DNA of 64,000 bases from positions 83,667 through 147,666 of the forward strand of contig CAIVJR010000005.1 of the NCBI GenBank assembly GCA_903906305.1, written 5' to 3'. Numbering within the stretch: the first letter of the stretch is position 1; every line of letters begins with the position of its first letter. The notes under the pieces are model-generated. The model was not told where the DNA came from. It worked only from the letters and a program-made list of their open reading frames with translations, and did no database searches. The translations under genes and the position numbers were made by a program. Source of the stretch: an uncultured bacterium. Lineage in GTDB: Bacteria > Patescibacteriota > Dojkabacteria > SC72. Positions 18,393 to 64,000 of this stretch are shown here, piece after piece.

Positions 18393-18797
18393 ATGGCAGA
18401 CGAAGCAAAAACATTACCAGAGCTTTCAGAGAACGCAAAGAAAGTTATGGATATTGTAGAGAAGATGACAGTGCTTGAACTTGCAGACTTGGTCAAGGTT
18501 ATGGAAGACAAGTTTGGAGTAAGTGCAGCAGCACCAGTTGCAGTAGCAGCTGTAGCAGCAGCACCAGCAGAAGCAGCAGAAGAGAAAACAATGTTTAACA
18601 TTGTTCTCAAAGCAGCAGGTGCAAACAAGATCTCTGTTATCAAAGTTGTAAGAGAAATCACAGAACTTGGTCTCAAAGAAGCTAAGGATATGGTTGATGC
18701 AGCTCCTCAGACAGTCAAAGAAGGTGTCAAAAAGGAAGATGCAGAAGCTATCAAAGCAAAATTTGAAGAAGCAGGTGCAACTGTTGAATTACAATAA
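18393..18797 (+). CDS. rplL: 50S ribosomal protein L7/L12
   Basis: Ala-rich hinge ([21 protein letters not shown]) and C-terminal domain [20 protein letters not shown]...[13 protein letters not shown]. Confidence 0.97.
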
Positions 18798-22282: not shown

Positions 22283-22292
22283 GATAAACATT

Positions 22293-23984: not shown

Positions 23985-23985
23985 T

Positions 23986-36806: not shown

Positions 36807-38291
<1,485 letters not shown>

Positions 38292-46799: not shown

Positions 46800-47421
46800 T
46801 AACTTTGAGTAGATCCGAGACTAAGTTATAGGGTCGACTATCTATTATCTTTTGAGCCGTTGATGGTCCTATTCCATCAAGACTATCTAACTCTGTTATT
46901 GATGCTGTGTTGATATTAACGCAACTGTTTTCTACAGGGTTGTTCGTTATATCCTCTTCTGGCGTGACATTTTCTTCAGGGTTTTGAGGAGCAATCTCCT
47001 CCTCCTTTAAAGTGAACGGTTTTAATTCACACAGAAGTTCCTCTTTAGAAGGTATATATATCTTCTGATTATTTACTAAAACCTTAGATAGATTTATGCT
47101 CCTTGCTACATATTCTAACGAGGTATTTGTATTAAAACCCCCAGCCTTTTTTACAGCATCAATCACTCGGTCCCCTGGGTTAAAACAATACACTCCTGGA
47201 GTCCTGAGAGCCCCACTAATATCTATGAAGATACTACATTGTGTATTTACAACTTCGGGTTCTGGGCATACGTTATGCTCAACTTGGTAGAATTTCTCTT
47301 CCTTTAAACTTTGTTCTACTGTACTTAGGTTTGGAAAGATATATTTAAGTAAAAAGAAGCCTCCTAAAAGACCTATTACAAGACTACCTATACATAGAAA
47401 GATGATTTTTCTTGATGACAT
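46747..47421 (-). CDS. comEA: ComEA DNA receptor (TM + SLBB + helix-hairpin-helix)
   Basis: GVYCFNPGDRVIDAVKKAGG (SLBB) and INTASITELDSLDGIGPSTAQKIIDSRPY (HhH). Confidence 0.85.
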   Translation of the reverse strand: MSSRKIIFLCIGSLVIGLLGGFFLLKYIFPNLSTVEQSLKEEKFYQVEHNVCPEPEVVNTQCSIFIDISGALRTPGVYCFNPGDRVIDAVKKAGGFNTNTSLEYVARSINLSKVLVNNQKIYIPSKEELLCELKPFTLKEEEIAPQNPEENVTPEEDITNNPVENSCVNINTASITELDSLDGIGPSTAQKIIDSRPYNLVSDLLKVSGIGQATYDKFKDNICI

Positions 47422-47455: not shown

Positions 47456-48118
47456 TTAATTTTCCAATATCTGAACAGATACTAGTTTTACATCATTTAC
47501 TGGTTTATCATTTTTGTCTGTTTCAACCTTCTCTATGGAGTCAACAACTGCGAATCCTTTAGTTACGATACCGAAGATTGTGTATTTACCATCCATATAT
47601 TCCGAGTTCTCTGCAGGTATATTGCCAGATGTGATGAAGAACTGAGAACCGTTGGTATCTGCTCCAGAGTTTGCCATGCCTACTACATATGGGCCATATT
47701 TTCTCTCTGTGATTTCATTTTTAACATAGTAGCCTGGTCCACCAGTACCTGTTCCAGTAGGATCTCCGGTTTGTATGACGAAGTTCTTAATTACTCTATG
47801 GAAGATCATATCTTCGTAGAAGTTTTTACCCGTTAAGAACAAGAAGCTATTTACTGTTAATGGGGTTTCTTTCTCTAAGAGATCAATGGTTATATCTCCT
47901 ACTGATGTTTTTAATACTGCTTTGTAATCTATGTTTTTCTCCATGACTTGTTCTGATTGCGTGTATGATGCTTTGGTAAGATCAGATAGTCCTGAATCCA
48001 TACTTAGAAGCCCACCACTCTTAGTTAAATACAGGCCTAATACACATGCAAGAAGTAATCCTACCACTAGGAATAGTATTTTCTTGTTGTCTTTTAATAC
48101 GTCTTTTACTCCGCTCAT
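47456..48118 (-). CDS. membrane-anchored cyclophilin-type peptidyl-prolyl isomerase
   Basis: N-terminal TM helix. FHRVIKNFVIQTGDPTGTGTGGPGY and MANSGADTNGSQFFIT. Confidence 0.9.
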   Translation of the reverse strand: MSGVKDVLKDNKKILFLVVGLLLACVLGLYLTKSGGLLSMDSGLSDLTKASYTQSEQVMEKNIDYKAVLKTSVGDITIDLLEKETPLTVNSFLFLTGKNFYEDMIFHRVIKNFVIQTGDPTGTGTGGPGYYVKNEITERKYGPYVVGMANSGADTNGSQFFITSGNIPAENSEYMDGKYTIFGIVTKGFAVVDSIEKVETDKNDKPVNDVKLVSVQILEN

Positions 48119-48163: not shown

Positions 48164-51100
48164 TTATATTGGAGCCGGTGGTGGTGGTGGTGGTGGTTCT
48201 GGTCCCTCGGGAGTACCACTACCTACCCACCAGAACCCTTTCTTTGCACCACCGCTATCAAACCATTGCCCATGTCTCATTAATTGATCAATTGTTGGGC
48301 CACTGGATACATAGTCTACTTGTACCTGGCTTAAATATGGCGTTACATTACTATCCCAGCTTGTAAATATCGTTTTGTATTGTACATACTGGGCGCTACT
48401 CGCGAATGATATATTTTCATTTGATGAATTTTTTAGATATCCCGTAGATGATCTTAGGTCATCTATCCACATATTTCTTCCTTCATTTCCATCATTTAAT
48501 CTAAATGTTAAGAGATTGGTTGCGTCTACCTGATTAGATATGGTTCTGTTTTTTACTGGTATATATTCTTTTTGCCATTTAAATACGTCTGCATTTACGG
48601 TATATCCCCCTGATGGGAATGTTGATCCACTATCCCATGAGGATACTGCTACTGCACCTGTACTTAGGTTTACTGTAGAGACTGTTCCTTGAGCTATGTA
48701 TTCAGTTCCATCATAGTTTTCTTTGATTATGACTTTGTCTCCTGCATAGAGTTCGCTTCCGAGTGATGGTAAACCATACTTGGTTGCATCGATATTGAAT
48801 GCATAGTCTCCGGAACCTGTGATGAGGTTACCACTGGCTAGTGATGCTCCAAATGTTACTGTTATATTGTGTGTTCGAAGACCTACCTCATATGCTTGGC
48901 GGATTTCGTCAGCAGTACGTGGTGTATTGTCAATTCGAATTTCATCCATTGATCCATTAAAAAATCTTCCCGCCACAGTTGGGTCATTGCCAATAATAAC
49001 CGCCGTAGCAGTAGTATTGGGAGCCCCAATAGAAGAATCTACTCCCGCTAATTGTCCATCTATATACATCCTAGCATCTGTTGTTCCATTCACCAAAACA
49101 GCGAAGTGATGCCATTGGCCATCGGTAACTGACTGTGGAGACAGAATATCTATTACATTCATAGTACCTCCTGAACTGGTTCTGAAGGATAACTGCCCTG
49201 TGGTTATCCAAGTAGCCAACCACCAGTTTCTGGCTGTTGTAGATGTATTCTTGGTAATAATTCCTTTGTAATCAGAGGTTGTTGTTGTTTTTAGCCAACC
49301 GGAGATTGTAAAGGTTGTTAAATCGAATGAAGTTGATGTCCCTAAGTTAATAATGTCACTTGTCCCGTTAAAGGTCCTTGCTCCACCTAATTTTCCACTA
49401 CTAGTATATGTCGTTCCTGTAGGAGTTCCGTTATTACTTCCTGTAACATTCTGTATATATGCTCCACTTCCCCCTATCTCATCCATATGCCAAAGGCCTA
49501 CGGTATTGATATCTGATTGAGAGTTTGCAAATGCTGATTCCCCCCATGTAGCAGATAGGTATGTACCTGGCCTATCACTTGCTACATTTATAGCCATAGT
49601 ATTCTTAGTAGAGAGGTTTATAGTATTAAGTGTTTGATTAATATATGAATCTCTACCTAATTTATATGATTCTGCTATTTCATTTGCAGTACGAGCAATG
49701 TTTGAGATACGAACTTCGTCCAATGAGCCTTGGTAATATTCCGCTGTCCCAAAATTTCCCAAAGATAGTTCACTTGGAACTCCTGCTCCATAGGTATATC
49801 CCGTAAGTGATTGAACCAAAATTCCATTTGCATATAACTTATAATTCCCTGAAGTATCTACTGTTGCCGCTATATGAGTCCAAGTATTAAGTGGTGGAAT
49901 GTAGGATGATTTATTTTGGGCCGAACCATGAAGTTGAAGAGATCCATCAGTAGCATGCATATATAACATCCAGTTGTAGACAGTTGCAGATCGATTAACA
50001 ACAAGATCTTGATAACCCGTATATCTTGAAGGATTTATCCAAGTTTCTACTGTTAATTCTTGTCCATTTGTCCTATTAAATGCACTAGTGGAGGCACGTA
50101 TATAGTCACTTGAGCCATTAAAACTCCTTGCCCCTCCCACCTTTCCTGCATTAGTATATGTAGTACCAGTTGGAGTTGCATTGTTTGATACAGTTCCACC
50201 AGTATATGTAGAAGGATAGCGTATGATGACAATACCAGATCCTCCAGAGGCACCCGCAGCACCATTCCAACCACCACCACCTCCTCCTCCAGTGTTTGCC
50301 GTACCTGCAGTAGCTGCGGTAGGTGTACTGTTCCCTCCTGAACCACCACCACCTGTTCCACCATTTGGAGTATCAGGATTTCCGAATTGTCCAAAACTAC
50401 CACCACCACCTCCTCCGTATGTAACTGCAGTTCCTGAAATTGAATTGGATACTCCATTACCACCATTACTTCCACCACCAGTAAGTCCATCTGATCCTTG
50501 ACCACTTGCCCCACCACCACCACCAGCGCCATAGTTAATAGAGGCGTTTCCTATTCCACCAGCAGAACCTTGCCCCGCAGTACCAGAAGAACGAGATGTT
50601 GTTCCAGATCTGGATCCACCACCAGAACCTCCGTTAGCTCCAGTAGCATTAGTTGCATTTCCACCATAACCACCACCAACAGCTGTCACAGTAAGGAATG
50701 AGCTATTTCCACCACTAGTATTAGCAGCTCCGCCATTTCCTACAACAACAGTATTATTACCTGCACTAACAGATACGGAAGATGAATATAGTACGCCACC
50801 AGCACCACCACCTCCACCTCCACCAGTAGCAGCTGCAGTTCCACCGCCACCACCACCGGCAACGGCTAACACTTCAACATTACCTGCCCCATTAGCTACA
50901 AATGTACCACCCGAGGTAAAGGTGTGAGTTATATATCCTACGGAATACGATACTGTACCTCCTGTTGCAAATGGAATTGGCGTTATCGTGGAATCCTTTA
51001 AATAGGCTCCAGTACCACTTCGTTCATCTAGATGCCATAATCCAACAGTATTTGAATCAACGGAATATGCGCCATTAGATAATCTCGTAGCTCCAGTACC

Positions 51101-54100
51101 TTCTGTCTTGAAACTACTTAATTTTTGAGATATTGTGCTACTTTTATTCATAATCCCTTTAGTATAGTCAGAAGCAATAGTTGAAGCTGACAAAGCAGTA
51201 TTAAAAATACGAACCTCATCTATAACACCATTGAAGAAATATGAAGCAGTTCCACCATACGCCCCTATTCTTTCCCCAGTTTGTCCAACTCTTAATGTTT
51301 GAGTATATGCCTTACTCGCAGCTAATATCCCATTAACATAAACTCTTTTATTACTTCCATCGTATGTGCAGGCTATATGGTTCCAAGCGTTATTCTTTAC
51401 ATACGTGCTGGTTATGAATGTTAGATCATCCATTGCTGCAGCAGTATTAAATGTTCTAAAATAGAATGTATCTGCAGCTGTAAAGAAACAAGAGTATTGA
51501 GTATTTACAGACCCTTTTTCAAATATAAAACCATTTTGATTAAAATTCGCAGAATATACCCATGATTCAATTGTTAAATTTGTAACATCAAAAACCCCTG
51601 AGCTTGGAATTTCAATATAGTTATTACTTCCATTAAAACCTCTGGCACTTTCAGATTTCCCATTTACGTATGATGCTCCTACTGGTGTAGCATCTTCAGA
51701 TGTAACACCACCTATATTTACAGTAGGATATCGTATAACAACAATACCAGATCCTCCAGAAGCTCCTGCTGCACCATTCCAACCACCACCACCTCCTCCA
51801 CCTGTATTTGCAGCACCCGCAGTAGCCGCGGTAGGTGTACTATTTCCTCCAGAGCCACCACCACCTGTTCCACCGTTTGGAGTTGTAGGATTTCCATACT
51901 GACCAAAACTACCCCCACCACCTCCACCGTATGTAACTGCAGTTCCAGTAATTGAATTAGATACTCCATTGCCACCATTACTTCCTCCACCAGTAAGTCC
52001 ATCTGATCCTTGAGCACTTGCACCACCCCCACCACCGGCGCCATAGTTAATAGAGGCATTTCCAATTCCTCCAGCATAACCTTGTCCCGAAGTTCCCGAA
52101 GAACGAGATACATTTCCAGATGCAGAGCCACCACCGCTTCCACCATTGGCCCCTAATGTGTTACTCGCATTACCACCATAGCCACCACCAACCGCATTTA
52201 AAGAGAGGAATGAACTATTCCCTCCACTTGCATTTGCACTTCCGCCAGATCCAACAACTACAGCATTATTACCTGCACTAATAGCTGTAGAAGCTGAGTA
52301 AAGGACACCACCCGCACCACCACCACCTCCTCCGCCAGTCGCAGCTGCCGTTCCACCACCACCACCACCGGCAACAACAAGGACTTCTACTGTGCCTGGT
52401 TGGCTAGCTGTGAAGGTTCCACCCGATGTAAATGTATGTATCGTATATCCTCCAGAATATGTTACTGTCCCTCCGGTACCAAATGGAACTGGTGTTGTCG
52501 CAACATCCTTAAGATATGCCCCAGATCCATTGGCTTCATCCATTGGCCAATAGGCTACTAATCCAGGATCAGTAGTACTATACAAATATGGATTATCAAA
52601 ACTATACTCAGGATAGTCACTCCCTAATTTAGTCTTAGCTGTCCACCCACTTGTAGTAGAAGAATCCCTTCCTGTTGTACTTGCAAAATTCGTTAGAGTA
52701 CCATTGCAAGCTATACCACAAGTACCAGCAGATATTGCTGTAGTTCCACTCAATTCATTGAACTTCCAATGCGCTAATAGTCCTGTAGAGCTATATGGTG
52801 TTTCAAAATCAGATACAGTGTAATTTGAAGCTATCTCTGACCCTGATAGTACCCTGTTATATATCTGTATGTTGTCTATGCTTCCATCAACGTAACTTGT
52901 ACCGTTATTATATTTACCGATAGTCAAAAGATTTGTACCTGCATCTAATCCAGTTATTCCTACTGTACTAACCGGACTATTAGCATCTTCCACACCGTTA
53001 ATATATAGTCTGAGTCCTGTAGCACTATTGGCTGTAAATGTAGCACATACATGTTGCCATGCACCTGTGGTAGCACTATTGGTAGCACCCTCTATAAAGG
53101 CAGCTGCACTATTTTGTCCTACCCATATCTTGTACATATTGGTACGTCCACTTACCTGGCCTACAATATCCTTAACCAACATTATTCCACTCCATGTACT
53201 ATTATCTACCTTTGACCAGATCATACTGTCTCCAGTCATTGTATCGTTGTTTACCCATGCACATGTAGAGAATGAGGTTAGGGCATCTACAGTTGCAATA
53301 TCTCCTACATTTACATAATCATCATTTCCATCAAACATTAATGCACCATCATTGTATGAGGTCCAGTTACTCCATGTACTGTTGTCTGTACTTGTTCTGT
53401 ATTGGAATTCTATATTTCCAGATTGGTAGTTAGAGAGAATTTCATTAGCAGAAAGGGCACGGGAATATATACGGGTAGAATCAATCATACCTTGGAAATA
53501 ATATTCGTAACTGGCCAGTCCTAATCTTCCGATTTGCAAGACTCCAGCGTTTGCAGTAATAGGACTTGCAAGAGATCCTGTGGTACCTTGTAATACACCA
53601 TTTACATAAAGTAGCATTGTTGTACCATCCCAAGTGCCAACTAAATGATACCAATTTCCAGCAGAGATTACAGCTGAGCCTGTTGCCTGTTTAAAAGATC
53701 CACCTTGATAAATTCTGAAATATACTCTGTTATTATAAACTAATAAGTCATAATGTCCCTCTGCCTGATCTGTTGTTCCTTTCGAAACTATAACACTCGT
53801 TTGTGCACCGGAAAAAGAAGGAAACCCTGTCGGTTCAATCCAAGCTTCAATAGATAAAGCCGTCGTTGGATCAAGCCTACTATCACTACCAGCAGTAACA
53901 TAATCATTACTCCCATCAAACATTACTGCCCCACTTCCCCATCTTCGGTTATTCGCTGTCCATCCTGTCCCTACAGCAGCATCTTGTCCAGTAGTAGTCA
54001 TATTGGTTAAAGTACCATTACATGATGTACCACATGTACCACCACTTACAGCTGTAATACCACTTGTTTCATTGAAATTCCATTGAGCTACCATACCAGT

Positions 54101-56038
54101 AGTACTGTATGGTGTTTCTCCATTACCAGTATTAACACCAGAAGCTAACCAAGACATAGTCATACCTGAGGCAGCCGAACCAAAATCTATGGAAGAGGAA
54201 ATATATTCTGCATATGGAGAAACATTACCACCCGGAGTGTTAGGAGTTGTTAGATATCTCACTATAACACCCCCATTCCCTCCTAATCCCAACGATGCGC
54301 CAGTAGCCATTCCACCACCACCACCACCTGAGAAACTGGCACCACTACCACCACCAGTTTGACCAAAACCAGCACCCCCTGGACCACCAGTGGCAAAAAA
54401 TGAGTTTCCACCACCACCGCCACCATAGTAAGTTGCTGTGCCACTAATCGAAGAAAGATAGCCTGCTCCACCTGCTCCACCTGCTCCCGAGTTTCCAGCC
54501 GCACCCGCAGCACTTGCACCACCACCGCCACCTGCGGAATATGGACTAGCACAACCATATCCAGATCCGCCAGCATTACCTTGTCCAGCTGTACCACTAG
54601 CGCCACCTCCTACTTGTGGCGCACCACCACCAGATCCACCCGTTTTAGGAGCAACCGTTACAGAACAGCTGTTACTACTACCACCACCACCTCCACCATA
54701 CCCAGTTATTGTTCCAAAAACAGAATTTCCTCCATTTGTTTCCGCAGCTCCACCAGCACCACCGGTAACTGTAACAGGAGATGTGGTAACTGCGTATGAG
54801 GCATTGTACACAACACCACCACCACCGCCACCACCACCGTAGGTTCCACCACCACCACCTCCTCCTCCAACAACAAGAGCTTCAACATTCCTACTAGAAG
54901 GACACGACAATGTTGTTGTACCTGTTGAAAATGTATGAATAGTATATCCACCAGAATATGTTATGGTTCCACCCGTACAGTCAGTTAAAACTTCAGCGCT
55001 TTGTTTAATTTGTACTTTAGGTCCCGCTACACTCTCAGTTTTATTAAACACCCCACCACTAAAATCAGTAGTATCATCATGTACAATACTCGGGTCTATT
55101 CTTATGGGATATACCCTATTTGGATCCAACAGCCACTCAGAACTGACTGTAACTTTAGCCTCATAGTTCTCGGCCTTGATTTCATTTATTGTTAAACCAA
55201 CCTCGTATGTCTTGTTACCAGCATCATCTACTGCATAACTAGGTAGGAAATGTGCTAGATACTTACCATTACCATTAACAAAATAGTAAACTTCCGAGCT
55301 CTTTCCATCTACTGTAAACCAACCTTTCTTTAATACCACACCATCATCCACCTTCAAATCAAATACAAACTCATTTAATGGCAACTTACATCCCTCATCA
55401 CAACTATTTCTGTATGCTTCCAAGTCATTTATGACTATCTCTTCCTTCAAACCCAATCCCTTCAATACCTGATATTCCAAATCTACACCATCTGCAACAC
55501 CTTGATTGACTATAGTTTGCTTGGAAATAATTTGATCACCCTCATTTTCCCCTATTTCTCGACCCATTTCAGTAAGTACTGTGGAGGTCTTAATTTCCTC
55601 TGTTCCTAAAATGTCTGCAACTTTCTGTACCTCTTCATCTTGTTGAGCTTTCCCATCTGCCTTAGTTTCACTGAAATCTATGCCTTGCAAAGACATCTCG
55701 ATGCCTGACTTCTTCTTCGGTGTGAATATGCTAGCTATTTTTGTGAAAATGTTTTTCTTTTCTTCTGATGAAAATGGATTATCATTTGAAGTTTTTGCTT
55801 CAAACCTAATCCATTGCCCCTCAGGATTTTCTTTATCTCCAAACTGTACTTCGAAAGTAGGATTTTCATTTGCAAACAGTGCCACACCTTCAGAATTGGT
55901 AAGAATCTTGTCATTGGGTCTTACTCTAACCGCAAGAAAGTAGAAAAGAAGAGTGCCAATTAAAAGCACTATTAAAGGTACTAAATAGTAGAGATCTTTC
56001 TTTTGTTGGGCAGTCAATCGCATGATAAATACTAACAT
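48164..56038 (-). CDS. giant (2624 aa) surface/secreted protein: signal anchor, 3 glycine-rich modules, at least 5 LamG/ConA-like modules, poly-Pro C-terminus
   Basis: N-terminal KKDLYYLVPLIVLLIGTLLFYFLAV. Gly-rich modules start GGT(I/V)(T/S)YS.GY(T/I)(I/T)HTF..G and end GG.G(V/I)(I/V)(V/I)RY. LamG hallmarks are repeated (F(D/N)G..DY, W.H(L/V/I/F), LY(V/I/A)NG, ID(E/S/N)(V/I/T)RI). C-terminus PEGPEPPPPPPPAPI. An alternative start is ATG 56023 (MRLTAQQKK). Confidence 0.8.
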   Translation of the reverse strand: MLVFIMRLTAQQKKDLYYLVPLIVLLIGTLLFYFLAVRVRPNDKILTNSEGVALFANENPTFEVQFGDKENPEGQWIRFEAKTSNDNPFSSEEKKNIFTKIASIFTPKKKSGIEMSLQGIDFSETKADGKAQQDEEVQKVADILGTEEIKTSTVLTEMGREIGENEGDQIISKQTIVNQGVADGVDLEYQVLKGLGLKEEIVINDLEAYRNSCDEGCKLPLNEFVFDLKVDDGVVLKKGWFTVDGKSSEVYYFVNGNGKYLAHFLPSYAVDDAGNKTYEVGLTINEIKAENYEAKVTVSSEWLLDPNRVYPIRIDPSIVHDDTTDFSGGVFNKTESVAGPKVQIKQSAEVLTDCTGGTITYSGGYTIHTFSTGTTTLSCPSSRNVEALVVGGGGGGGGTYGGGGGGGGVVYNASYAVTTSPVTVTGGAGGAAETNGGNSVFGTITGYGGGGGGSSNSCSVTVAPKTGGSGGGAPQVGGGASGTAGQGNAGGSGYGCASPYSAGGGGGASAAGAAGNSGAGGAGGAGYLSSISGTATYYGGGGGGNSFFATGGPGGAGFGQTGGGSGASFSGGGGGGMATGASLGLGGNGGVIVRYLTTPNTPGGNVSPYAEYISSSIDFGSAASGMTMSWLASGVNTGNGETPYSTTGMVAQWNFNETSGITAVSGGTCGTSCNGTLTNMTTTGQDAAVGTGWTANNRRWGSGAVMFDGSNDYVTAGSDSRLDPTTALSIEAWIEPTGFPSFSGAQTSVIVSKGTTDQAEGHYDLLVYNNRVYFRIYQGGSFKQATGSAVISAGNWYHLVGTWDGTTMLLYVNGVLQGTTGSLASPITANAGVLQIGRLGLASYEYYFQGMIDSTRIYSRALSANEILSNYQSGNIEFQYRTSTDNSTWSNWTSYNDGALMFDGNDDYVNVGDIATVDALTSFSTCAWVNNDTMTGDSMIWSKVDNSTWSGIMLVKDIVGQVSGRTNMYKIWVGQNSAAAFIEGATNSATTGAWQHVCATFTANSATGLRLYINGVEDANSPVSTVGITGLDAGTNLLTIGKYNNGTSYVDGSIDNIQIYNRVLSGSEIASNYTVSDFETPYSSTGLLAHWKFNELSGTTAISAGTCGIACNGTLTNFASTTGRDSSTTSGWTAKTKLGSDYPEYSFDNPYLYSTTDPGLVAYWPMDEANGSGAYLKDVATTPVPFGTGGTVTYSGGYTIHTFTSGGTFTASQPGTVEVLVVAGGGGGGTAAATGGGGGGGAGGVLYSASTAISAGNNAVVVGSGGSANASGGNSSFLSLNAVGGGYGGNASNTLGANGGSGGGSASGNVSRSSGTSGQGYAGGIGNASINYGAGGGGGASAQGSDGLTGGGSNGGNGVSNSITGTAVTYGGGGGGSFGQYGNPTTPNGGTGGGGSGGNSTPTAATAGAANTGGGGGGGWNGAAGASGGSGIVVIRYPTVNIGGVTSEDATPVGASYVNGKSESARGFNGSNNYIEIPSSGVFDVTNLTIESWVYSANFNQNGFIFEKGSVNTQYSCFFTAADTFYFRTFNTAAAMDDLTFITSTYVKNNAWNHIACTYDGSNKRVYVNGILAASKAYTQTLRVGQTGERIGAYGGTASYFFNGVIDEVRIFNTALSASTIASDYTKGIMNKSSTISQKLSSFKTEGTGATRLSNGAYSVDSNTVGLWHLDERSGTGAYLKDSTITPIPFATGGTVSYSVGYITHTFTSGGTFVANGAGNVEVLAVAGGGGGGTAAATGGGGGGGAGGVLYSSSVSVSAGNNTVVVGNGGAANTSGGNSSFLTVTAVGGGYGGNATNATGANGGSGGGSRSGTTSRSSGTAGQGSAGGIGNASINYGAGGGGGASGQGSDGLTGGGSNGGNGVSNSISGTAVTYGGGGGGSFGQFGNPDTPNGGTGGGGSGGNSTPTAATAGTANTGGGGGGGWNGAAGASGGSGIVIIRYPSTYTGGTVSNNATPTGTTYTNAGKVGGARSFNGSSDYIRASTSAFNRTNGQELTVETWINPSRYTGYQDLVVNRSATVYNWMLYMHATDGSLQLHGSAQNKSSYIPPLNTWTHIAATVDTSGNYKLYANGILVQSLTGYTYGAGVPSELSLGNFGTAEYYQGSLDEVRISNIARTANEIAESYKLGRDSYINQTLNTINLSTKNTMAINVASDRPGTYLSATWGESAFANSQSDINTVGLWHMDEIGGSGAYIQNVTGSNNGTPTGTTYTSSGKLGGARTFNGTSDIINLGTSTSFDLTTFTISGWLKTTTTSDYKGIITKNTSTTARNWWLATWITTGQLSFRTSSGGTMNVIDILSPQSVTDGQWHHFAVLVNGTTDARMYIDGQLAGVDSSIGAPNTTATAVIIGNDPTVAGRFFNGSMDEIRIDNTPRTADEIRQAYEVGLRTHNITVTFGASLASGNLITGSGDYAFNIDATKYGLPSLGSELYAGDKVIIKENYDGTEYIAQGTVSTVNLSTGAVAVSSWDSGSTFPSGGYTVNADVFKWQKEYIPVKNRTISNQVDATNLLTFRLNDGNEGRNMWIDDLRSSTGYLKNSSNENISFASSAQYVQYKTIFTSWDSNVTPYLSQVQVDYVSSGPTIDQLMRHGQWFDSGGAKKGFWWVGSGTPEGPEPPPPPPPAPI
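50213..50962 (-). repeat. glycine-rich module 3 (near-identical to module 2; about 1.5-kb period)
   Basis: GGTVSYSVGYITHTFTSGGTF...VEVLAVAGGGGGGTAAATGGGGGGGAGGVLYS...GSGIVIIRYP. Long identical stretches are shared with module 2. Confidence 0.8.
51725..52477 (-). repeat. glycine-rich module 2 (near-identical to module 3)
   Basis: GGTVTYSGGYTIHTFTSGGTF...VEVLVVAGGGGGGTAAATGGGGGGGAGGVLYS...GSGIVVIRYP. Confidence 0.8.
54250..54977 (-). repeat. glycine-rich module 1 of giant protein 1 (diverged copy)
   Basis: GGTITYSGGYTIHTFSTG...VEALVVGGGGGGGG...GGNGGVIVRYLT, read from the DNA at these coordinates. Confidence 0.7.
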
Positions 56039-56070
56039 ATACCAGAGGGTATTTGTAGGTTATTTTGCTA

Positions 56071-56099
56071 TTGATTTGCGACCAGAATACGACTATAAT
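56071..56099 (+). promoter_or_regulatory. promoter placed for a leaderless fic transcript
   Basis: TTGATT, 17 nt, TATAAT (56094-56099), then 6 nt, then ATG 56106. Confidence 0.4.
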
Positions 56100-56105
56100 A
56101 TGACT

Positions 56106-57131
56106 ATGTTTAATCCCCAATATACAATTACAAACAAGCTCGCTACCAACATGCGAAAGGTTGGGGAGATTATTGGATTTCTTAATTCTCAAGCACTTTC
56201 TGATACCGTCCTTATGACCATGACCTCTGAAGCAAGAGCTTTGTCCTCATTCTCCTCAACTCAGATAGAGGGGAACCCCCTACCACTTACCGATGTAAAA
56301 AGAATTATTAAGTCTCAACCAGCAATAATTAAAGATACAGAGAGAGAGGTTCTGAACTACAATAAAGCGATATTAGTTCTAGATAAACAGATCAAAGATG
56401 GTGGTATTGGAAAACTTTCAAATCCATTCATATGTAATATCCAAAAAATAGTCATAGATGGACTTCTAAGTAATTCATACAAAGGTAAGTACAGGAATGA
56501 ACCTGTTTTTGTAAATGATCCAGTGAAGAGGGAGACTGTATATCTGCCTCCCGATGCAAATGATGTAGAACCTCTCATGACTGATCTAATTAACTTTGTT
56601 AATTCTCAAGAGAAAGAGATCGATCCTTTAATTATAGCTGGGATATTTCATAGGCAAGCGGTGATTATCCACCCATTCATGGATGGAAATGGTAGAACTA
56701 CAAGATTAATTACAAAGACTTTACTAGCTAAACTAGGCATAAATACATTTCCTCTTTTTAGTTTTGAAAACTATTACAACAGTAATGTAACCCGGTATTT
56801 TGAAAAGGTTGGGGTATTAGGAAACTATTACGATATAGTGGATCAAATTGATTTTACAGAATGGTTAGAATATTTTACAGAAGGTATCCTAGATGAATTG
56901 AACCGAGTAATATCAAAATTCCCACAGTACATGGAGAGGTTAGAACCACATCATAAAAAAATTCTTGAATATATTCATGAACACGGGTCAATCACAACTA
57001 GAGAATACGCTCAGATTACATCAAGAGCCAAAGCAACAAGAATTCAAGATTTTAAAAAGCTTACTGATATGGGGTTGATTAAGTCTGTAGGTATAGGCAA
57101 AGCTACCTACTACATTCTTAAAACTGAATAG
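56106..57131 (+). CDS. Fic/DOC family protein (class II, N-terminal inhibitory motif) with C-terminal wHTH
   Basis: Fic motif HPFMDGNGRTTR. Upstream auto-inhibitory-type motif STQIEGN ([ST]xxxE[GN]). C-terminal HTH-like GSITTREYAQITSRAKATRIQDFKKL. The ATGs at 56100 and 56106 are both possible; the track start at 56022 overlaps the divergent gene. Confidence 0.85.
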   Translation: MFNPQYTITNKLATNMRKVGEIIGFLNSQALSDTVLMTMTSEARALSSFSSTQIEGNPLPLTDVKRIIKSQPAIIKDTEREVLNYNKAILVLDKQIKDGGIGKLSNPFICNIQKIVIDGLLSNSYKGKYRNEPVFVNDPVKRETVYLPPDANDVEPLMTDLINFVNSQEKEIDPLIIAGIFHRQAVIIHPFMDGNGRTTRLITKTLLAKLGINTFPLFSFENYYNSNVTRYFEKVGVLGNYYDIVDQIDFTEWLEYFTEGILDELNRVISKFPQYMERLEPHHKKILEYIHEHGSITTREYAQITSRAKATRIQDFKKLTDMGLIKSVGIGKATYYILKTE

Positions 57132-57137: not shown

Positions 57138-60100
57138 CTATAACGACCTGTTATATGTAATCGCAATATCACCTATCCTCACATAGTTATCACTCAATGA
57201 CGACATCCTCATTATGAATACGCATGTATCTCCTGCCACTGCACATTCATTTAGATCTGTTCCTGCAATAGTACTTGATGTCCAAACTCCTGCGGAGGAT
57301 GATACTCCTGCTGCAAATGTTCCATCAACTGTTACAGAATCTTCCTTGTAGATATACATATCAACCTTATTGTTGGTATCACTTGTTGATTCTGTAGTAT
57401 AGTTAAGTTTTACTCCTCCAGTGCTACCCCATCCATTGAAATCGGATGGTAATGTAAATCTTACACGTAAGTCATAGTCGTTTAAGGAAAGAGCTGCACT
57501 ACTCCATTCATAATAGTTCATGGAGTTAGATGATGATCCTGTATTGTCAGAGGTCATTGCCCCTACGTTATCTGTCCCATCTCCTGAGAGTACGGCACCT
57601 GCATATTCTGCAGAGAGTGTAACCTTTCTTGCAATATCACCTAATGGCATCCATTCTATACCATCGTTTGAGAATTCTATCGTATTATCGGTTGCATTAT
57701 ATCTTATACTCCCCTGGTCTCCTGTTGTTCCTAGGGTTATGCTTCCTCCTGCAATAGCGACATCCCCTGCTAAGGTCATATCTCCTTCTGAACTTACTAC
57801 CATCATATCTACACTATTGGTTTGTAGTTTGAGGAGATTTCCTCCTGTCCCCATCTTGTTTACCCATATACTATTCGTATTGTTTCCCCCATCTATCTGA
57901 GCTGCATTAGGTGCAATGTTTACTGAATATTCACTGGTTCTTAAATCAATTGCTGCACTTCCTAATATCACATCTAATTTAAGTTTCTGTGCTTTTCCAC
58001 TGTTGTTGTACAGTCTTACGGTATTTGCATCTGTTATCTGGATCTTGAATCCGGATGAATATGTAAAGGTAATATTCTCTAACTGTGGTTGGTAACTTAG
58101 GTTTGTGGTTGTAAAGATTACTCTGTACTGCATATATGCATTTGGTGTACTTGCTACTGGACTTCCTGTATTTGTAGAAAGTAGTTTCTCTGCTTCTACA
58201 TTGTCTAAGTAGATGGTATTACTGCTTGTAGAGAAGTTGGTTAATCGTATCTTGGTTATGGCATCTCTACTACCTACTGCTATATCTGATATATCCCAAT
58301 ATATCTTCTGCCATACATTGGCTGTATCGATTGTAATATCTTCGTACTGATCTGCTCCTGTGCTTTCTCCCATCCCTATTCTTATGGTATTACCTGCTTG
58401 GGAGGCTCTTACCCAAAGGGTTACATAGTCGTAGTTGGTTAGGTTAGCTGCAGCTATGGTTGATTCCATATATCCTCCATTGGTACTGCTAGTTACCTTA
58501 GTTAGGTTAGTACCTAGTGGTTCTACCTCATCTTCAAAACCATATATTGATGGCCGTGTTATATCTCCTTCCGCTACTGTTGCATTGGTTCCTGTCCAAT
58601 CTGTATGGGTATCGGCTCCTTGCAGTGTTGTGTAGTTAGTACCTGAAGTACTTGGTTTCCACGATTCCCATGTTCCATCGGTTGGATCATTGGTTGCTCC
58701 ACTTCTGGTTTGTACAGATATTTTTCCATATGTATTTAATGATGCATCCCACTTTAGGTTGTCATATGATTGGGCATTGGTTGTAGATACTACAGGACTA
58801 TTATATATTCCATATGGGGTTTGGTTTCTATATCGAACTATAACAACACCCGAACCGCCAGCTCCTGCACCACCATATCCATTGCTTCCACCTCCTCCAC
58901 CACCAGTATTTGCAGTTCCTGGATAGCCAACATACATACCTCCATCTCCACCTCCTCCTACGCCACCAGCTCCTCCACTACCTGTTGTATCTGCACCACC
59001 ACCACCTCCTCCTGCATAATAGGTTGAAATTCCCGAAATACTGTATGCTGATCCTGCACCACCAGCACCACTATGTGTAGTACTTGCAGGCAAGTATCCT
59101 CCACCGGCTGCACCACCTCCACCAGAGCTAGGATATGGAGCAGCGATAACATTTGTATTTCCTCCTGCATATCCCTGACCTGCCGTACCAGTTCCACCAT
59201 TGGCAGGATTAACTGTTGATGTTCTACCACCACCACCACCGGAGCCACCATTTTGAGCAGCCTCTGGACCCGTCGTGTCATTAGTACCACCTCTACCACC
59301 ACCTATGGCAGTTAGAGAACCAAAAACAGAATTACCACCTTGAGTTGGTGAAGCTCCACCCGCACCTCCAGCTCCTACAGTTACTGTTATTGGAGATGCC
59401 GTCGTTGCTGCATATGAAGCATTGTATAACAAACCACCAGCACCACCACCTCCAGCTTTTCCACCACCACCACCTGCTACTACCAATACTTCTACATTAG
59501 CTGTAGTTGTTGGTGTAAATGTTCCAGAAGATGTAAATGTATGAACTGTATATCCACCTGGATATGGCATAGTAGTTCTAGGATTTAATCCATTGGTATC
59601 TGTATATGTTATTGTTCCCCCTATTCCGATCACTGCAGGATTTAGATTACTTGCGTTTATGCTTGTCCTAATAACTCCACCTGCAGCCGCATCACTCCAT
59701 TGATTAGAAAGATTCTGTGTTACATTGTTATCTGCCCCCGTTACTTCTACCCATTTGTTTAATGTTGTATCAAATACCCATCCATTAGCTACTAGATTGT
59801 ATGTATTTTGACCATGTACTACCTCTAAGTAACTACCATTAGCTATAACATCGTTTGAGTTAGTAAATAGTCCATTTACTGAAGCATCATCTAATTCCAT
59901 CTGCGACAGTCCCCATTTAGATATATATATTGCTGTTTTGTTAGATGATCCTCTAGCTATCTCAAATTTTACCTTGTAGTTCTTGTCTGATGTTGGGAAT
60001 ATGAATGAATATTCATATTCTGGTAATGATCCCAACGTATTCGTTTGTATGAGTGTTCCTGTTACATAGTTAGCACCGTTATCATTTGATGCAGAGACTG

Positions 60101-63100
60101 TGATACTACTTGATGGATCACTTCCATCTATACTTGCAGTCATCCATAGGAAGGCTCGGTTGGTACTTTCTGCGAAGGTTGTTACATTAGAATAGTATGT
60201 TCCTGTACTGTTATTTCCATTAGAATCTACTCCCATTAAGGCTCCACTACTTCCAATATCTCCTGCGAATACAGGATAGTATCTACCCGATAGTGTTTCG
60301 ATGTTGTTTGTACTTGTACTTGGATCTGTTGCTGTAGTATATGCATTTAATCTTGTACTTGATGTTAGATCTATTTTAGATATTCCTCCTCCTTCTGTTC
60401 CTACATACATGTATTTACTATCTGGGGTTACTAGTATGTCTCTAATATCATTGCTTGTTCCACTTAATTGGTTGTATGTATCTGCAGATGTATGTGAGCC
60501 TTTGAGAGCTCTAAGACCATCTTCATATTGTGATTTGATTTGAGCAGAAGTTAATACAGTGCCAGTTACCATTGGTTCATCTATTATTCCTGCAAAGTAT
60601 ACGCTTGGAGTTCCAAGGGAGATACGACTTCCAATGGTAAAACGTTCCGTATTATCTATAAATGCAGCAGCGGGGACACCAGTTTGAGATGCTACTTCTA
60701 CTCCATTTACATACAATCTCATTACCGACCCATCATAGCTACCAACAACATTGTACCAAGTATTTGCGGTTGGAATAGCACCCGTAGCAGTTACAGTATA
60801 GCTGGTCCCATTGTATGTTGTGAATGCTAAATTCTGGCCGGAAGTATAGAACTGGTATGTATAATATGGAGCAGTTCCTCCATCACCCTTCCCAAGGATC
60901 TGCTTCGTACCCGCAACATTTGCGGGGTTTATCCAAGCAGAAACAGTAACATTTCCAGTGATATCTGTCTTTGTTACTCCTCCGCATGTGGCATCAGTAC
61001 AGTATAGATATTCATCTGTTCCATTGAAGTCTACTGCCTTACCTCTTACTCCAGAGACTGCGTCATTGCTATCTATATTTACTGCTGTTAATGCATTTGC
61101 CTTTGTGGATACATCTTCATTATCTGCACTTGTATTATCATAATTTAATGGCCACATTCCTCTAATATCCCCTACCATTTGTTCAGAGATATAGTCTTTG
61201 GTATAGTATTTTACAGAGCCCGTAGCTTCAACTGAACCATCTGCTAGATTACCTTTTCCCTGTACCTCTTGAATTACAGAAACACCTGCGGCAGTACCAA
61301 CATAAAGAGTATTTGATTTCCCGTCTACTATAGAGGTTCCTTCTGTAACCCTTAAGTTCTTAATTTGGTTGACGCTTGTAACTCCTAATATCGCCAACTT
61401 CCAAGCACTAGCTCCTTGGAAATAGTAACCGTTATTTTGTACAGTCCAAGTAGCGTCAGAGGATATAGATGCAGGATTATAGTAGGAATATAAAGCACTG
61501 TTATTTCCTGTATCGTCATTTCCAGCAATATATAAAACATTATTACTTGTCAAAACAGCCTTGCTTGTCCAGAGGACATTGGCATGCTGAGTCCCATTCC
61601 AAACATCTGCCTTTGTACCTTGTGTCTTATTTATAACCGTAACCGCCCCATCCACTCCCGTATCCCCTGTAGCCACAGCTACAAATTGTTTTGGAGATAC
61701 AGTACCTGTAGCGGTCCACGTATAACAATAATTATAAGAAGACGAGTAAAGATAAGTAGCATTAGCACTCCCCATATCTGCTTCAAAATTAGTGTTTGTC
61801 CTACCAACTCTAGGTTGCGCAGAAGACGCTTCAAAAAACCAATCAACACAATCGGCTTGGCTACTTGGGACACCACTAGAAGTAGCTCTCCTACCAACAT
61901 GACTCATGGTAACAATAGGCGTATTGTCAAATTTATATGGGAAGTTTACGAATTCTGCTATATCTTGCGAGTTATCTCCTTGTATATATCCCCACCCACT
62001 CACAGTCATCTCTTGTGTAGGTTGATTTGGTATAACAGCAGCAGAAACATCATTAACCTCATTGCTAATAATAGATACAGACGTATTAACAAGTGTATAG
62101 CCACTTCCAATATCTCTTCCACCAATACCTGTGCTTCCGCTAAACCTATATGTTCCACCATTAGAAATATCTATAGCAGAATCATTAACAAAGCTAATCT
62201 CTTGATATCCATTATCAGCAGCACTTGTATTACTTACAACATATAATTGCCCATTTAGTACATCCATTGCATTTATAGTTCTACCCGTATTTGCACTTAA
62301 CATCTTACCTCCAGCATAAGCAGCATTATTTGAAGCAAACTTCATCCATACTCTTTGAGTATCTACATCAACAATAGTTACATAGATATATGAAGCATCA
62401 GTACTACCAATGATTACAGATCTCTCTGGGAACTCCCTCTTACTACCCCTGTCATTAGCAGTAGTAGGCTCTATAATCCAGCTTGCAATTCTAAACTTGT
62501 CCCCATTCTTGTAATCACTTCTTACAGGCTTAACGGTTATACTGCTCCCGGAGCAGCTTCCTGATACAAATGCATACGAAGAACCAAATGCAAGATTAGC
62601 ACCAGAAGCCGTACAAGTACCATCTGAAGAAACAATATTAGCAGTAATACCCGTTGTAGTAGTACCAGTAATAGTCAAATCAATATATCCATGTTCAGAA
62701 CCAGTACCATATACACCGGATACACCAATTAAACTACCATTGTAGGAAGTAGTAAGATTAGAGGTTGTTTGAAGTGATACACCCTTGTACCAATTAGGAT
62801 CTACACCAACATCTACTAATGTCTCTGGAGTAGAATCTTGATCCTGTAGTCCAGATTGAGTTCTGTCATAGTACTTACTAGTTAGGAGTGTAGCTGTAGC
62901 AGAACCTAGATATCTGTTACCTGCAATATCCAACATACTGCTATCTATGGTTATTCCACCCCACACACCAGCCTTTTTAGCATCAGAGTCCACACCAATG
63001 GTTGAGTTAGTACTATCAATCTTCAGTGAATCTACAAAGTTATCAAACATTACTGTCTGAGATTGATTACTCTCTAAGTATCCTCTTCTCTCAGCATCTG

Positions 63101-64000
63101 ACATTGCTGTGTAATCATTTGCTAACTGATTGTAGATATCTCTGTATACGTTTTCATCATAGCTGACATTGAGATACATATCTGCGGTTACTTTGTTCTG
63201 TGCATCAAATACCATCTTTACATATCCAGAACCTGCATCAGCTATTGATGTAACAACACCTAACAATCCATTGGTTTGGGTTGTCCCAGAAGATGAATGA
63301 CCTTGTCCTGCTACTGTAGAGGAGTAAATATAGTCGCCACGAGAACTAGAGGCTGCATTATCTAGATTTACATCTACTACACCTTCAAATGCTACTAAGC
63401 ACGCATCTCCGTTGTCACATACTCCATCTTTATCTACATCTCCATTTAGTTCCACTCCTTGTACAACTCCTAGCGCTCCTTGGAGGCCTGGCACTGTGGT
63501 TGTAGTGAATGCTCCATTAGTAGATGAGTCTACAGTGACTAACGATCTTTCAGTTACTATACCTCCTGAGTTATTTATCAATACTGCTCCTAGACCCTTT
63601 CCTGAGGTTATGGTTCCTGATACATACAGGTTTCCATCTGCATCTAGGTACATCTTTTCTACACTGTTATTCATCACAGAGAGTAGCTTTGATGATGGGT
63701 TAGTAAATGCTGTAGAAGTATTGAATTGGAATGCGATTGCATCTTCACCATCTGCTACATGCGATACTGCTAAGCCATTTACAAAACCACCACCACTACT
63801 TCCAGCTCCTGTAGATGCTACTACTTCTAGTCTTAAATATTCATTCCCTCCAGAGTAGTTATACAGCCTTACGTTATTGGCGTCATACATAACTATTCTG
63901 TATCCACTGTTGTATGCAAGAGAAATACTTTCTAACTGTGGTTGATATGACAGATTTGTTGTTGTAAAGATTACTCTGTACTGTAAGTATTGATTTGGGG
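57138..64000 (-). CDS. giant surface/secreted protein 2 (over 2287 aa; N-terminus outside window) with LamG and glycine-rich modules
   Basis: Hand translation shows the frame stays open upstream of the track start (63890) to the window edge: ...PNQYLQYRVIFTTTNLSYQPQLESISLAYNSGYRIVMYDANNVRLYN... It has a LamG module (GKAVDFNGTDEYLYC...WYNVVGSYDGSVMRLYVNGVEVAS...YFAGIIDEP) and a Gly-rich module. Confidence 0.8.
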   Translation of the reverse strand, partial: PNQYLQYRVIFTTTNLSYQPQLESISLAYNSGYRIVMYDANNVRLYNYSGGNEYLRLEVVASTGAGSSGGGFVNGLAVSHVADGEDAIAFQFNTSTAFTNPSSKLLSVMNNSVEKMYLDADGNLYVSGTITSGKGLGAVLINNSGGIVTERSLVTVDSSTNGAFTTTTVPGLQGALGVVQGVELNGDVDKDGVCDNGDACLVAFEGVVDVNLDNAASSSRGDYIYSSTVAGQGHSSSGTTQTNGLLGVVTSIADAGSGYVKMVFDAQNKVTADMYLNVSYDENVYRDIYNQLANDYTAMSDAERRGYLESNQSQTVMFDNFVDSLKIDSTNSTIGVDSDAKKAGVWGGITIDSSMLDIAGNRYLGSATATLLTSKYYDRTQSGLQDQDSTPETLVDVGVDPNWYKGVSLQTTSNLTTSYNGSLIGVSGVYGTGSEHGYIDLTITGTTTTGITANIVSSDGTCTASGANLAFGSSYAFVSGSCSGSSITVKPVRSDYKNGDKFRIASWIIEPTTANDRGSKREFPERSVIIGSTDASYIYVTIVDVDTQRVWMKFASNNAAYAGGKMLSANTGRTINAMDVLNGQLYVVSNTSAADNGYQEISFVNDSAIDISNGGTYRFSGSTGIGGRDIGSGYTLVNTSVSIISNEVNDVSAAVIPNQPTQEMTVSGWGYIQGDNSQDIAEFVNFPYKFDNTPIVTMSHVGRRATSSGVPSSQADCVDWFFEASSAQPRVGRTNTNFEADMGSANATYLYSSSYNYCYTWTATGTVSPKQFVAVATGDTGVDGAVTVINKTQGTKADVWNGTQHANVLWTSKAVLTSNNVLYIAGNDDTGNNSALYSYYNPASISSDATWTVQNNGYYFQGASAWKLAILGVTSVNQIKNLRVTEGTSIVDGKSNTLYVGTAAGVSVIQEVQGKGNLADGSVEATGSVKYYTKDYISEQMVGDIRGMWPLNYDNTSADNEDVSTKANALTAVNIDSNDAVSGVRGKAVDFNGTDEYLYCTDATCGGVTKTDITGNVTVSAWINPANVAGTKQILGKGDGGTAPYYTYQFYTSGQNLAFTTYNGTSYTVTATGAIPTANTWYNVVGSYDGSVMRLYVNGVEVASQTGVPAAAFIDNTERFTIGSRISLGTPSVYFAGIIDEPMVTGTVLTSAQIKSQYEDGLRALKGSHTSADTYNQLSGTSNDIRDILVTPDSKYMYVGTEGGGISKIDLTSSTRLNAYTTATDPSTSTNNIETLSGRYYPVFAGDIGSSGALMGVDSNGNNSTGTYYSNVTTFAESTNRAFLWMTASIDGSDPSSSITVSASNDNGANYVTGTLIQTNTLGSLPEYEYSFIFPTSDKNYKVKFEIARGSSNKTAIYISKWGLSQMELDDASVNGLFTNSNDVIANGSYLEVVHGQNTYNLVANGWVFDTTLNKWVEVTGADNNVTQNLSNQWSDAAAGGVIRTSINASNLNPAVIGIGGTITYTDTNGLNPRTTMPYPGGYTVHTFTSSGTFTPTTTANVEVLVVAGGGGGKAGGGGAGGLLYNASYAATTASPITVTVGAGGAGGASPTQGGNSVFGSLTAIGGGRGGTNDTTGPEAAQNGGSGGGGGRTSTVNPANGGTGTAGQGYAGGNTNVIAAPYPSSGGGGAAGGGYLPASTTHSGAGGAGSAYSISGISTYYAGGGGGGADTTGSGGAGGVGGGGDGGMYVGYPGTANTGGGGGGSNGYGGAGAGGSGVVIVRYRNQTPYGIYNSPVVSTTNAQSYDNLKWDASLNTYGKISVQTRSGATNDPTDGTWESWKPSTSGTNYTTLQGADTHTDWTGTNATVAEGDITRPSIYGFEDEVEPLGTNLTKVTSSTNGGYMESTIAAANLTNYDYVTLWVRASQAGNTIRIGMGESTGADQYEDITIDTANVWQKIYWDISDIAVGSRDAITKIRLTNFSTSSNTIYLDNVEAEKLLSTNTGSPVASTPNAYMQYRVIFTTTNLSYQPQLENITFTYSSGFKIQITDANTVRLYNNSGKAQKLKLDVILGSAAIDLRTSEYSVNIAPNAAQIDGGNNTNSIWVNKMGTGGNLLKLQTNSVDMMVVSSEGDMTLAGDVAIAGGSITLGTTGDQGSIRYNATDNTIEFSNDGIEWMPLGDIARKVTLSAEYAGAVLSGDGTDNVGAMTSDNTGSSSNSMNYYEWSSAALSLNDYDLRVRFTLPSDFNGWGSTGGVKLNYTTESTSDTNNKVDMYIYKEDSVTVDGTFAAGVSSSAGVWTSSTIAGTDLNECAVAGDTCVFIMRMSSLSDNYVRIGDIAITYNRSL
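58824..59621 (-). repeat. glycine-rich module in giant protein 2
   Basis: GGTITYTDTNG...GGYTVHTFTSSGTFTPTTTANVEVLVVAGGGGGKAGGGGAGGLLYN...GSGVVIVRYRN. Confidence 0.7.

Follow-up and report, generated by a model that had tools for sequence, protein, structure and literature searches.

Bacteria of the Candidate Phyla Radiation (CPR) account for a sizeable part of bacterial diversity, and the majority are thought to live attached to other cells. To our knowledge, the way in which they recognize their partners is essentially unknown outside Saccharibacteria. Here, we describe a giant gene located at positions 48164..56038 on the minus strand of a 64,000-nucleotide stretch of contig CAIVJR010000005.1 (assembly GCA_903906305.1), from now on referred to as the window, from an uncultured member of the Dojkabacteria (WS6, CPR). 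The gene probably encodes a cell-surface binding protein, a predicted adhesin, with variable recognition modules. Its closest described counterparts are surface proteins with laminin G (LamG)/concanavalin A (ConA)-like domains from CPR and DPANN organisms, which have been predicted to act as attachment factors (PMC11310336, PMC12911398, PMC10266531). The protein analysed here resembles them in coming from a reduced-genome host, in being anchored or secreted and very large, in carrying several LamG/ConA-like domains, in varying from strain to strain and in having a function that is so far a prediction. In contrast to other giants of this type, it belongs to a family that has conserved, unannotated N- and C-domains of its own and a MRHGKWF...FWW tail at the C-terminus, places phage-type Gly_rich_2 modules among its LamG domains and is encoded in a conserved cassette of two giant genes.

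The glycine-rich modules have their closest described relatives in phage tails. The tail fibre gp24 of cyanophage Pam3 (PDB 7YPX), a trimer of 250-residue chains, carries a helical domain for baseplate docking at its N-terminus and has its own chaperone, gp25. Its glycine-rich unit is built on a TNF-like β-sandwich from which GGGGxGG loops project and pack together as a hydrogen-bonded lattice; the loops have conserved glycine stems and variable tips, and it is the tips that have been proposed to bind the host receptor (PMC9608196). The unit is related to gp38 of Salmonella phage S16 and to ALK (PMC9608196), and a 2026 paper classed the domains of Pam3, S16 gp38, ALK and mycobacteriophage Bxb1 gp33 and gp29 (the 'tail wing brush' and tail spike, respectively; PDB 9D93) as polyproline-II/polyglycine-II helical bundles (PMC13243192). 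Unlike Pam3 gp24, our query protein contains the module three times in one chain, embedded in a LamG array, and neither a helical shaft nor a chaperone gene was seen, with no gp25-like gene adjacent. Likeness to the glycine-rich domain of ALK/LTK (PDB 7LRZ, 7NX3, 7LIR, 7LS0) is distant, with 17-18% identity in an alignment of about 115 residues. ALK belongs to the metazoan receptor kinases; the query modules belong to Gly_rich_2 (PF21722) and do not match the ALK-type Gly_rich family in Pfam. A further match, to the haloarchaeal Tat-fimbriae subunit TafC (NF052521; E 3.5e-42, 4 stretches), reaches 144.8 bits against an NCBIfam equivalog cutoff of 410. Given also the lack of a Tat signal and the bacterial organism, membership in the TafC family was rejected, and the match reflects the shared LamG fold only (PMC11821415).

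The gene is a single open reading frame (ORF) of 2,624 amino acids (aa) that begins with ATG, runs without interruption for 7.9 kb and has its stop codon within the coordinates above, exactly reproducing the position and length given in a first-pass annotation of this DNA. A public contig of 244,877 bp carries the identical protein, annotated as "hypothetical protein". Its closest homologues are labelled candidate division WS6 or Candidatus Dojkabacteria, in line with the earlier assignment to a bacterium with a reduced gene set. Pfam finds five Laminin_G_3 stretches (PF13385; E 5.5e-131, 432.8 bits against a gathering cutoff of 27.6) and three Gly_rich_2 stretches (E 3.8e-44, 151.8 bits against a gathering cutoff of 24.3), with Gly2 by itself scoring 63.3 bits to Gly_rich_2; both sets of matches are far beyond chance. 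Weaker LamG-type matches are to Laminin_G_1, Laminin_G_2, the clostridial toxin receptor-binding N-domain (Toxin_R_bind_N) and the sialidase N-terminal lectin domain. The profile searches thus support both module types proposed in the first-pass annotation, and the motifs quoted there are all present: GGT(I/V)(T/S)YS.GY..HTF opens modules at aa 356, 1189 and 1693, VE.L.V(G/A)GGGGGG is found, and G(V/I)(I/V)(V/I)(I)RY lies at the end of each glycine-rich (Gly) module. The strings AQYVQYKTIFTSWDSNVTPYLSQVQVDYVSSG and LMRHGQWFDSGGAKKGFWW and the terminal PEPPPPPPPAPI were likewise located. The alternation of Gly and LamG modules given in the annotation is not strict, the order after the transmembrane anchor being N-G-L-L-G-L-G-L-L-C followed by a proline-rich tail. 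Module borders were drawn by phmmer self-comparison and with hidden Markov models (HMMs) built from the protein's own modules, self-BLASTP having returned the identity match only. The features are listed below from N- to C-terminus, with protein identities taken from a domain-by-domain comparison of the query with five close orthologues.

55928..55990, minus strand: N-terminal hydrophobic signal-anchor (about aa 17-37), preceded by the basic stretch QQKKD
54983..55918, minus strand: conserved, family-defining N-domain (aa 41-352); 88-91% identity
54227..54982, minus strand: Gly1, variable (aa 353-604), Pfam Gly_rich_2; 53-58% identity, 18% against P0006, which has a LamG in that slot
53345..54208, minus strand: LamG1 with its N-terminal hairpin (aa 611-898), best Laminin_G_3 stretch at aa 708-867; 61-67% identity
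52703..53344, minus strand: LamG2, a conserved LamG (aa 899-1112) with Toxin_R_bind_N, Sialidase N-terminal and Laminin_G_3 matches; 84-89% identity
52631..52864, minus strand: orphan LamG N-terminal hairpin with a CxxxC motif (aa 1059-1136), phmmer self-match to aa 611-698 (E 1.2e-23)
51683..52486, minus strand: Gly2 (aa 1185-1452), modelled as TNF-like sandwich plus polyglycine-II lattice, apparently nested in the first hairpin of LamG3; 54-89% identity, varying with the partner genome
51059..51682, minus strand: LamG3 body (aa 1453-1660), with its first strand upstream of Gly2 at about aa 1160-1184; 34-47% identity, 88% against P0002
50171..50974, minus strand: Gly3 (aa 1689-1956), apparently nested in the first hairpin of LamG4, best Gly_rich_2 stretch at aa 1709-1941, a DNA repeat; 54-89% identity, varying with the partner genome
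49529..50170, minus strand: LamG4 body, variable (aa 1957-2170); 41-54% identity
48824..49528, minus strand: LamG5, uninterrupted and variable (aa 2171-2405), Laminin_G_2 and Laminin_G_3 at aa 2254-2371; 49-56% identity
48224..48823, minus strand: conserved C-domain (aa 2406-2605); 86-91% identity
48227..48301, minus strand: near-invariant extreme C-terminal motif GPTIDQLMRHGQWFDSGGAKKGFWW
48167..48226, minus strand: proline-rich tail VGSGTPEGPEPPPPPPPAPI

The Gly modules consist of 36-38% glycine. Gly2 and Gly3 are 84% identical at the protein level, and each shares 52-54% identity with Gly1. Using an alignment of 35 diverse Gly modules (A1), Gly2 was modelled with AlphaFold2, giving a mean pLDDT of 91.1 and a pTM of 0.88. 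The model has a few β-strands at both ends, while the bulk of the chain is neither strand nor helix. A Foldseek search of predicted viral structures returned 203 matches at E<=1e-3, with TM-scores of up to 0.85 and 35-47% identity, from tailed phages, prasinoviruses and one haloarchaeal virus. Several of the matches carry ConA-like lectin domains as well. At the sequence level, the module matches phrog_2295, a group of unknown function, at E 1e-52. Searches of PDB sequences with the Gly module alone and with the A1 profile gave nothing useful and only fold comparison was informative. Based on the model, the Gly module shares the fold of phage tail-fibre receptor-binding tips, with the TNF-like sandwich and polyglycine-II lattice of Pam3 gp24 and Bxb1 gp33. 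The first-pass annotation had likened the unit to glycine-rich domains of phage tail fibres, which structure prediction and fold search bear out, and had expected a β-helix, which they do not: the model matches the Pam3 gp24 tip, and a right-handed β-helix of the adhesin/tailspike kind was rejected for want of a β-helical fold. In an alignment of 181 Gly modules, the glycine runs form the conserved columns, and the differences between Gly2 and Gly3 fall mostly into the low-conservation stretches between these runs.

Two of the three Gly modules seem to sit inside other domains. The upstream flanks of Gly2 and Gly3 (LVAYWPMDEANGSGAYLKD and VGLWHLDERSGTGAYLKD) correspond to the first strand of a LamG domain and the downstream flanks (DATPVGASYVNGKSESARGFNG and NNATPTGTTYTNAGKVGGARSFNG) to the rest of the same domain. 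With the Gly module spliced out, both pairs of flanks are collinear with the start of the uninterrupted LamG5 (VGLWHMDEIGGSGAYIQNVTGSNNGTPTGTTYTSSGKLGGARTFNG), which makes Gly2 and Gly3 appear, judging from these alignments, to be nested insertions in the first hairpins of LamG3 and LamG4. Such nesting would account for the 504-aa period of the protein. Gly1 is not nested in a LamG domain. The orphan hairpin at aa 1059-1136 has no LamG body after it and may be the scar of a module lost through deletion or recombination.

The hydrophobic segment at about aa 14-41 is the only one in the protein and the only window above 1.6 in a Kyte-Doolittle scan, in agreement with the N-terminal signal anchor proposed earlier. 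It is followed by about 2,590 residues of β-rich modules. All 14 cysteines form seven close pairs along the sequence, as expected for an extracytoplasmic protein. Sortase anchoring was considered and rejected: the C-terminus (FWWVGSGTPEGPEPPPPPPPAPI) has neither an LPXTG motif nor a second hydrophobic segment. For the two terminal domains, sequence searches of Pfam, PHROG and the PDB gave no match. At E<=5, Pfam returned only a sub-threshold DUF5060 match on the N-domain, C-domain and linker, a PDB search with the N-domain gave only chance-level OXA β-lactamase matches (E about 0.1), and the C-domain profile found nothing useful in the PDB. The C-domain is modelled as a confident β-barrel of about 95 aa followed by a poorly modelled QYVQYK...VQVDY segment. 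The motif GPT.DQ.MRHGKWF.SSG.KQ.FWW, near-invariant in the family, occurs in 87 proteins, in 85 of them at the C-terminus, and matches no known sorting or anchoring signal. The proline-rich tail beyond it is found in the query only, as relatives stop within a few residues (e.g. GTH).

Across a set of 120 homologues, drawn almost entirely from Dojkabacteria or related CPR bacteria, the terminal domains come back again and again, the C-domain more so than the N-domain, while the inner array has 0 to 4 Gly modules and 2 to 10 LamG modules, arranged in many different orders. An N-domain HMM matches 54 of the 120, and a word-index homologue search with the same domain found 9 fragments only. A C-domain HMM built from a single sequence gives 99 domain matches, the domain being present in about 100 homologues. 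Searched against 1.84 billion proteins, the C-domain profile identifies 774 representative clusters at E<=1e-3 and 331 at E<=1e-30; most of the matches listed are 1,000-6,400 aa long, and shorter ones may be fragments. Conserved, unannotated N- and C-domains and a C-terminal tail motif, with a shuffled array between them, thus define a Dojkabacteria (CPR) family. The query has all of its features, namely an anchor followed by the N-domain, the C-domain, the terminal motif and a place downstream of a giant partner gene.

The identities given with the features above separate two kinds of modules. In two of the orthologue genomes, the neighbouring cyclophilin-type peptidyl-prolyl isomerase (PPIase), ComEA, ComEC, metallo-β-lactamase-fold (MBL) protein, arginyl-tRNA synthetase (ArgRS) and RuBisCO are 82-93% identical to their counterparts here. 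With 84-91% identity, the N-domain, LamG2 and the C-domain track the genome, whereas the other modules have been replaced or diverge far faster; a Gly2-LamG3-Gly3 block nevertheless reaches 87-89% identity against one orthologue. A constant scaffold combined with variable modules is the pattern of phage receptor-binding proteins and variable adhesins. A diversity-generating retroelement was discounted as the source of the variability, since the differences replace modules as a whole (34-67% identity) and the Pfam-scanned ORFs of the window, in a scan that was not exhaustive, included no reverse transcriptase.

Internal repeats such as Gly2 and Gly3 are of a type that short-read assemblers mishandle, and a collapse or expansion could in principle yield a false ORF or a false module count, the outcome that the first-pass annotation named as its own refutation. 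There is next to no chance that this has happened here. At the DNA level the two share no more than 83% identity (300 nt, spaced 1,512 nt apart), a difference that short reads resolve easily and that indicates diverged copies rather than a collapse, and the ORF stays open throughout. Module order also recurs elsewhere: the independent ENA assembly P0001 is 100% identical over 97% of the length with the same order of Gly and LamG modules, and the orthologues P0002-P0004, which come from other samples, share this order at 74-81% identity in best local alignments.

The genomic setting was compared across six loci whose giants are 36-81% identical to the query. A large partner gene lies directly upstream in all six, with a 1-nt overlap in two. 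Downstream, cyclophilin PPIase, ComEA, ComEC, the MBL protein and ArgRS follow in five, with RuBisCO sharing the neighbourhood where the locus reaches that far, while the sixth locus (L007) has ribosomal L10/L12 genes instead. In the window, the genes next to the giant are as follows.

57138..64000, minus strand: C-terminal 2,286 aa of the partner gene, frame open to base 64000
56022..57131, plus strand: Fic/DOC gene with a winged-helix (wHTH) domain, between the two giant genes
47456..48118, minus strand: membrane-anchored cyclophilin-type PPIase, 45 nt downstream of the giant
46747-47421, minus strand: ComEA
45090-46799, minus strand: ComEC
44309-45127, minus strand: MBL-fold protein

The partner ORF, listed as 2,250 aa, has no upstream stop in the window and represents the C-terminal 2,286 aa of P0121. 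This 3,965-aa protein has a Sec signal peptide and contains a single LamG and a single Gly_rich_2. Upstream partner proteins have a conserved C-terminal region of 180-560 aa, and a comparison of the partner C-terminus with PDB sequences gave nothing useful. Some partner homologues from Microgenomates carry Peptidase_S74 and are named "tail fiber domain-containing protein". The motif QYRVIFTTTNLSYQPQLE appears twice in the partner, which has an internal duplication: an 86-nt repeat at 58060-58145 recurs at 63913-63998 with 79% identity. Hydrophobic segments are present at the N-termini of both cyclophilin and ComEA, that of cyclophilin being a transmembrane segment. The Fic/wHTH gene is found in one related lineage (L003/L004) and is absent from L001, L002 and L005-L008; given this patchy presence, it represents a variable insertion and not a part of the conserved cassette. 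It overlaps the annotated ATG of the giant by 17 nt, so that Met6 may be the true start. In WS6 GW2011_GWC1_36_11 (L001), an ORF with the contact-dependent inhibition toxin C-terminal domain CdiA_C (18086-18490, minus strand) lies a few kb downstream of the orthologous cassette and has no counterpart in this window.

The remainder of the window is ordinary chromosome, encoding TopA, DprA, PBP2, MreBC, tRNAs, UvrA, prolyl-tRNA synthetase (ProRS) and the RuBisCO large subunit in addition to ArgRS, ComEC and ComEA. No capsid, portal, terminase or tail genes were found among its Pfam-scanned ORFs. A promoter and terminator scan detected sites no more numerous than in shuffled sequence, and operon boundaries were not set by it.

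The first-pass annotation proposed that proteins of this size could be host- or partner-cell adhesins. This proposal fits the topology, the domain content, the variability pattern and the published predictions for LamG proteins of CPR and DPANN organisms, and we consider it probable. The signal-anchor would reside in the membrane in an N-in/C-out orientation, with the remainder of the chain extending from the cell over tens of nanometres. Binding to glycans or proteins on a host or partner cell or on a substrate would then fall to the variable LamG and TNF/polyglycine-II modules, many weak sites possibly acting jointly in a multivalent manner, and specificity would diversify through module exchange, as in phage receptor-binding proteins. 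The constant N-domain, LamG2, C-domain and tail may serve anchoring and assembly, possibly including the docking of the 3,965-aa secreted partner, and the membrane-anchored cyclophilin is a plausible foldase for exported giants rich in glycine and proline.

Several points weigh against this proposal. The role of the LamG and Gly-rich domains could be structural and nothing else. The main difficulty concerns the end presumed to be distal: comprising the C-domain and the MRHGKWF...FWW tail, it is the most conserved part of the protein, unlike what would be seen in an adhesin that binds with its tip. Recognition would hence need a lateral or multivalent mode, unless the C-terminus acts as a second point of attachment, which leaves room for a coat protein fixed at both ends that diversifies under phage pressure. 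Nesting of Gly modules in LamG domains does not extend readily across the family, as a crude regular expression for the flanking motifs matched 31 of the 181 Gly modules, and it is claimed here only for modules 2 and 3 of this protein. The link to ComEA and ComEC, which is lost in L007, may be plain synteny. Partner docking and a foldase role of cyclophilin are themselves steps that we infer.

One alternative gives the same architecture a different function, in which the protein is an envelope coat, an S-layer-like structural protein or a phage decoy. It would mainly build or shield the cell surface, with its far end fastened to the wall through the C-terminal tail, and the modules would vary not for binding a host but to escape phages that use the protein as a receptor. 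Hypervariability of the modules could equally come from phage or predator pressure on an exposed coat protein, conserved ends around a hypervariable middle are consistent with such a role, the invariant extreme C-terminal motif suggests a second anchoring or assembly contact, and phages of CPR bacteria including Dojkabacteria have been documented (PMC11310336). In contrast, neither S-layer homology (SLH) nor any other wall-binding domains turned up in Pfam scans, modules of the lectin and phage receptor-binding types are folds for binding, and a chain of 2,624 aa built from 10 heterogeneous modules does not resemble S-layer proteins that form lattices. We regard this alternative as possible although rather unlikely, and it is compatible with adhesion. 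The ConA-like domains also admit a nutritional role, since Laminin_G_3 falls within the concanavalin A-like lectin/glucanase superfamily and ConA-like genes in a Patescibacteria phage context have been read by some as glycoside-hydrolase-associated (PMC12911398); the protein would in that case degrade or capture polysaccharide for nutrition instead of mediating attachment. That seems improbable, as Pfam and NCBIfam gave no match to any family of glycoside hydrolases or lyases and the matches obtained are to non-catalytic LamG, pentraxin, toxin receptor-binding and sialidase-lectin domains.

The phage-like fold of the Gly modules raises the question of whether the gene is simply the tail-fibre gene of a prophage or tailocin, that is, a viral receptor-binding protein resident in the chromosome. 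Its best structural matches come indeed from the tail fibres and tail spikes of phages, the phrog_2295 match of the Gly module is joined by matches of a LamG to PHROGs for phage virion and baseplate, and the Peptidase_S74 domains and names of some partner homologues point the same way. However, the protein begins with a membrane anchor and a β-rich N-domain where Pam3 gp24 has its helical baseplate-docking N-terminus, no fibre chaperone is seen adjacent, the Pfam-scanned ORFs of the window include no phage structural genes, and its neighbours are housekeeping genes, with ArgRS, ComEC, ComEA and PPIase kept in five of six genomes and ribosomal L10/L12 genes present in L007. A Pam3 gp24-like tail fibre was rejected on these grounds, and a viral identity for the gene is very improbable and largely refuted. 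A more far-reaching variant of the adhesin proposal treats the whole cassette (a secreted fibre-like partner of about 4,000 aa, the anchored 2,624-aa giant, the exported cyclophilin, ComEA and ComEC) as a single apparatus dedicated to host capture and DNA scavenging. The anchored giant would dock the secreted one through conserved terminal domains including the MRHGKWF...FWW tail, and host specificity would depend on the exchange, as cassettes, of phage-derived modules nested in LamG domains. If true, this would amount to a cellular tail-fibre-like organelle made from domesticated phage receptor-binding folds; we consider it unlikely, and any link to DNA uptake is one that we infer.

LamG-rich giant surface proteins are expected in CPR bacteria, Gly_rich_2 is curated in Pfam and the sequence itself is public. 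New are the structural identity of the modelled Gly module with phage tail-fibre tips, its apparent nesting in LamG domains, the definition of the family, the pattern of scaffold and variable modules and the cassette of two giant genes. The locus thus offers a concrete candidate for partner recognition, in which an anchored giant combines a constant scaffold with recognition modules that differ sharply between near-identical genomes. If the modules do bind as proposed, they could serve as metagenomic markers of host range and would provide a natural case in which a multidomain protein of a cell makes use of polyglycine-II binding domains of the phage type.

A number of other features were seen in the window. 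ProRS is broken by an in-frame TAA at 37944-37946 (minus strand). A 110-aa ORF at 37944-38276 corresponds to the N-terminus of a relative's 489-aa ProRS (87/90 residues), and the frame runs on into the ORF at 36807-37844; a sequencing error, a pseudogene or stop-codon readthrough could account for this. Over the 44 long ORFs of the window, TAA is the stop codon in 28, TAG in 15 and TGA in 1, so that TGA is almost never used as a stop, yet the trinucleotide is common in the sequence. Four ATP-grasp genes in a row (ATPgrasp_ST, RimK-like) are located near a gene for a MATCAP-like protein (tyrosine carboxypeptidase family) and a histidine kinase gene (19761-24933, plus strand; 28724-29893, minus strand), and together they may form a peptide-ligation or modification cluster. 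Finally, this reduced genome encodes two MreB paralogues along with MreC, PBP2 and a RuBisCO large subunit (8099-9154 and 29918-30937; 38308-39684; all minus strand).

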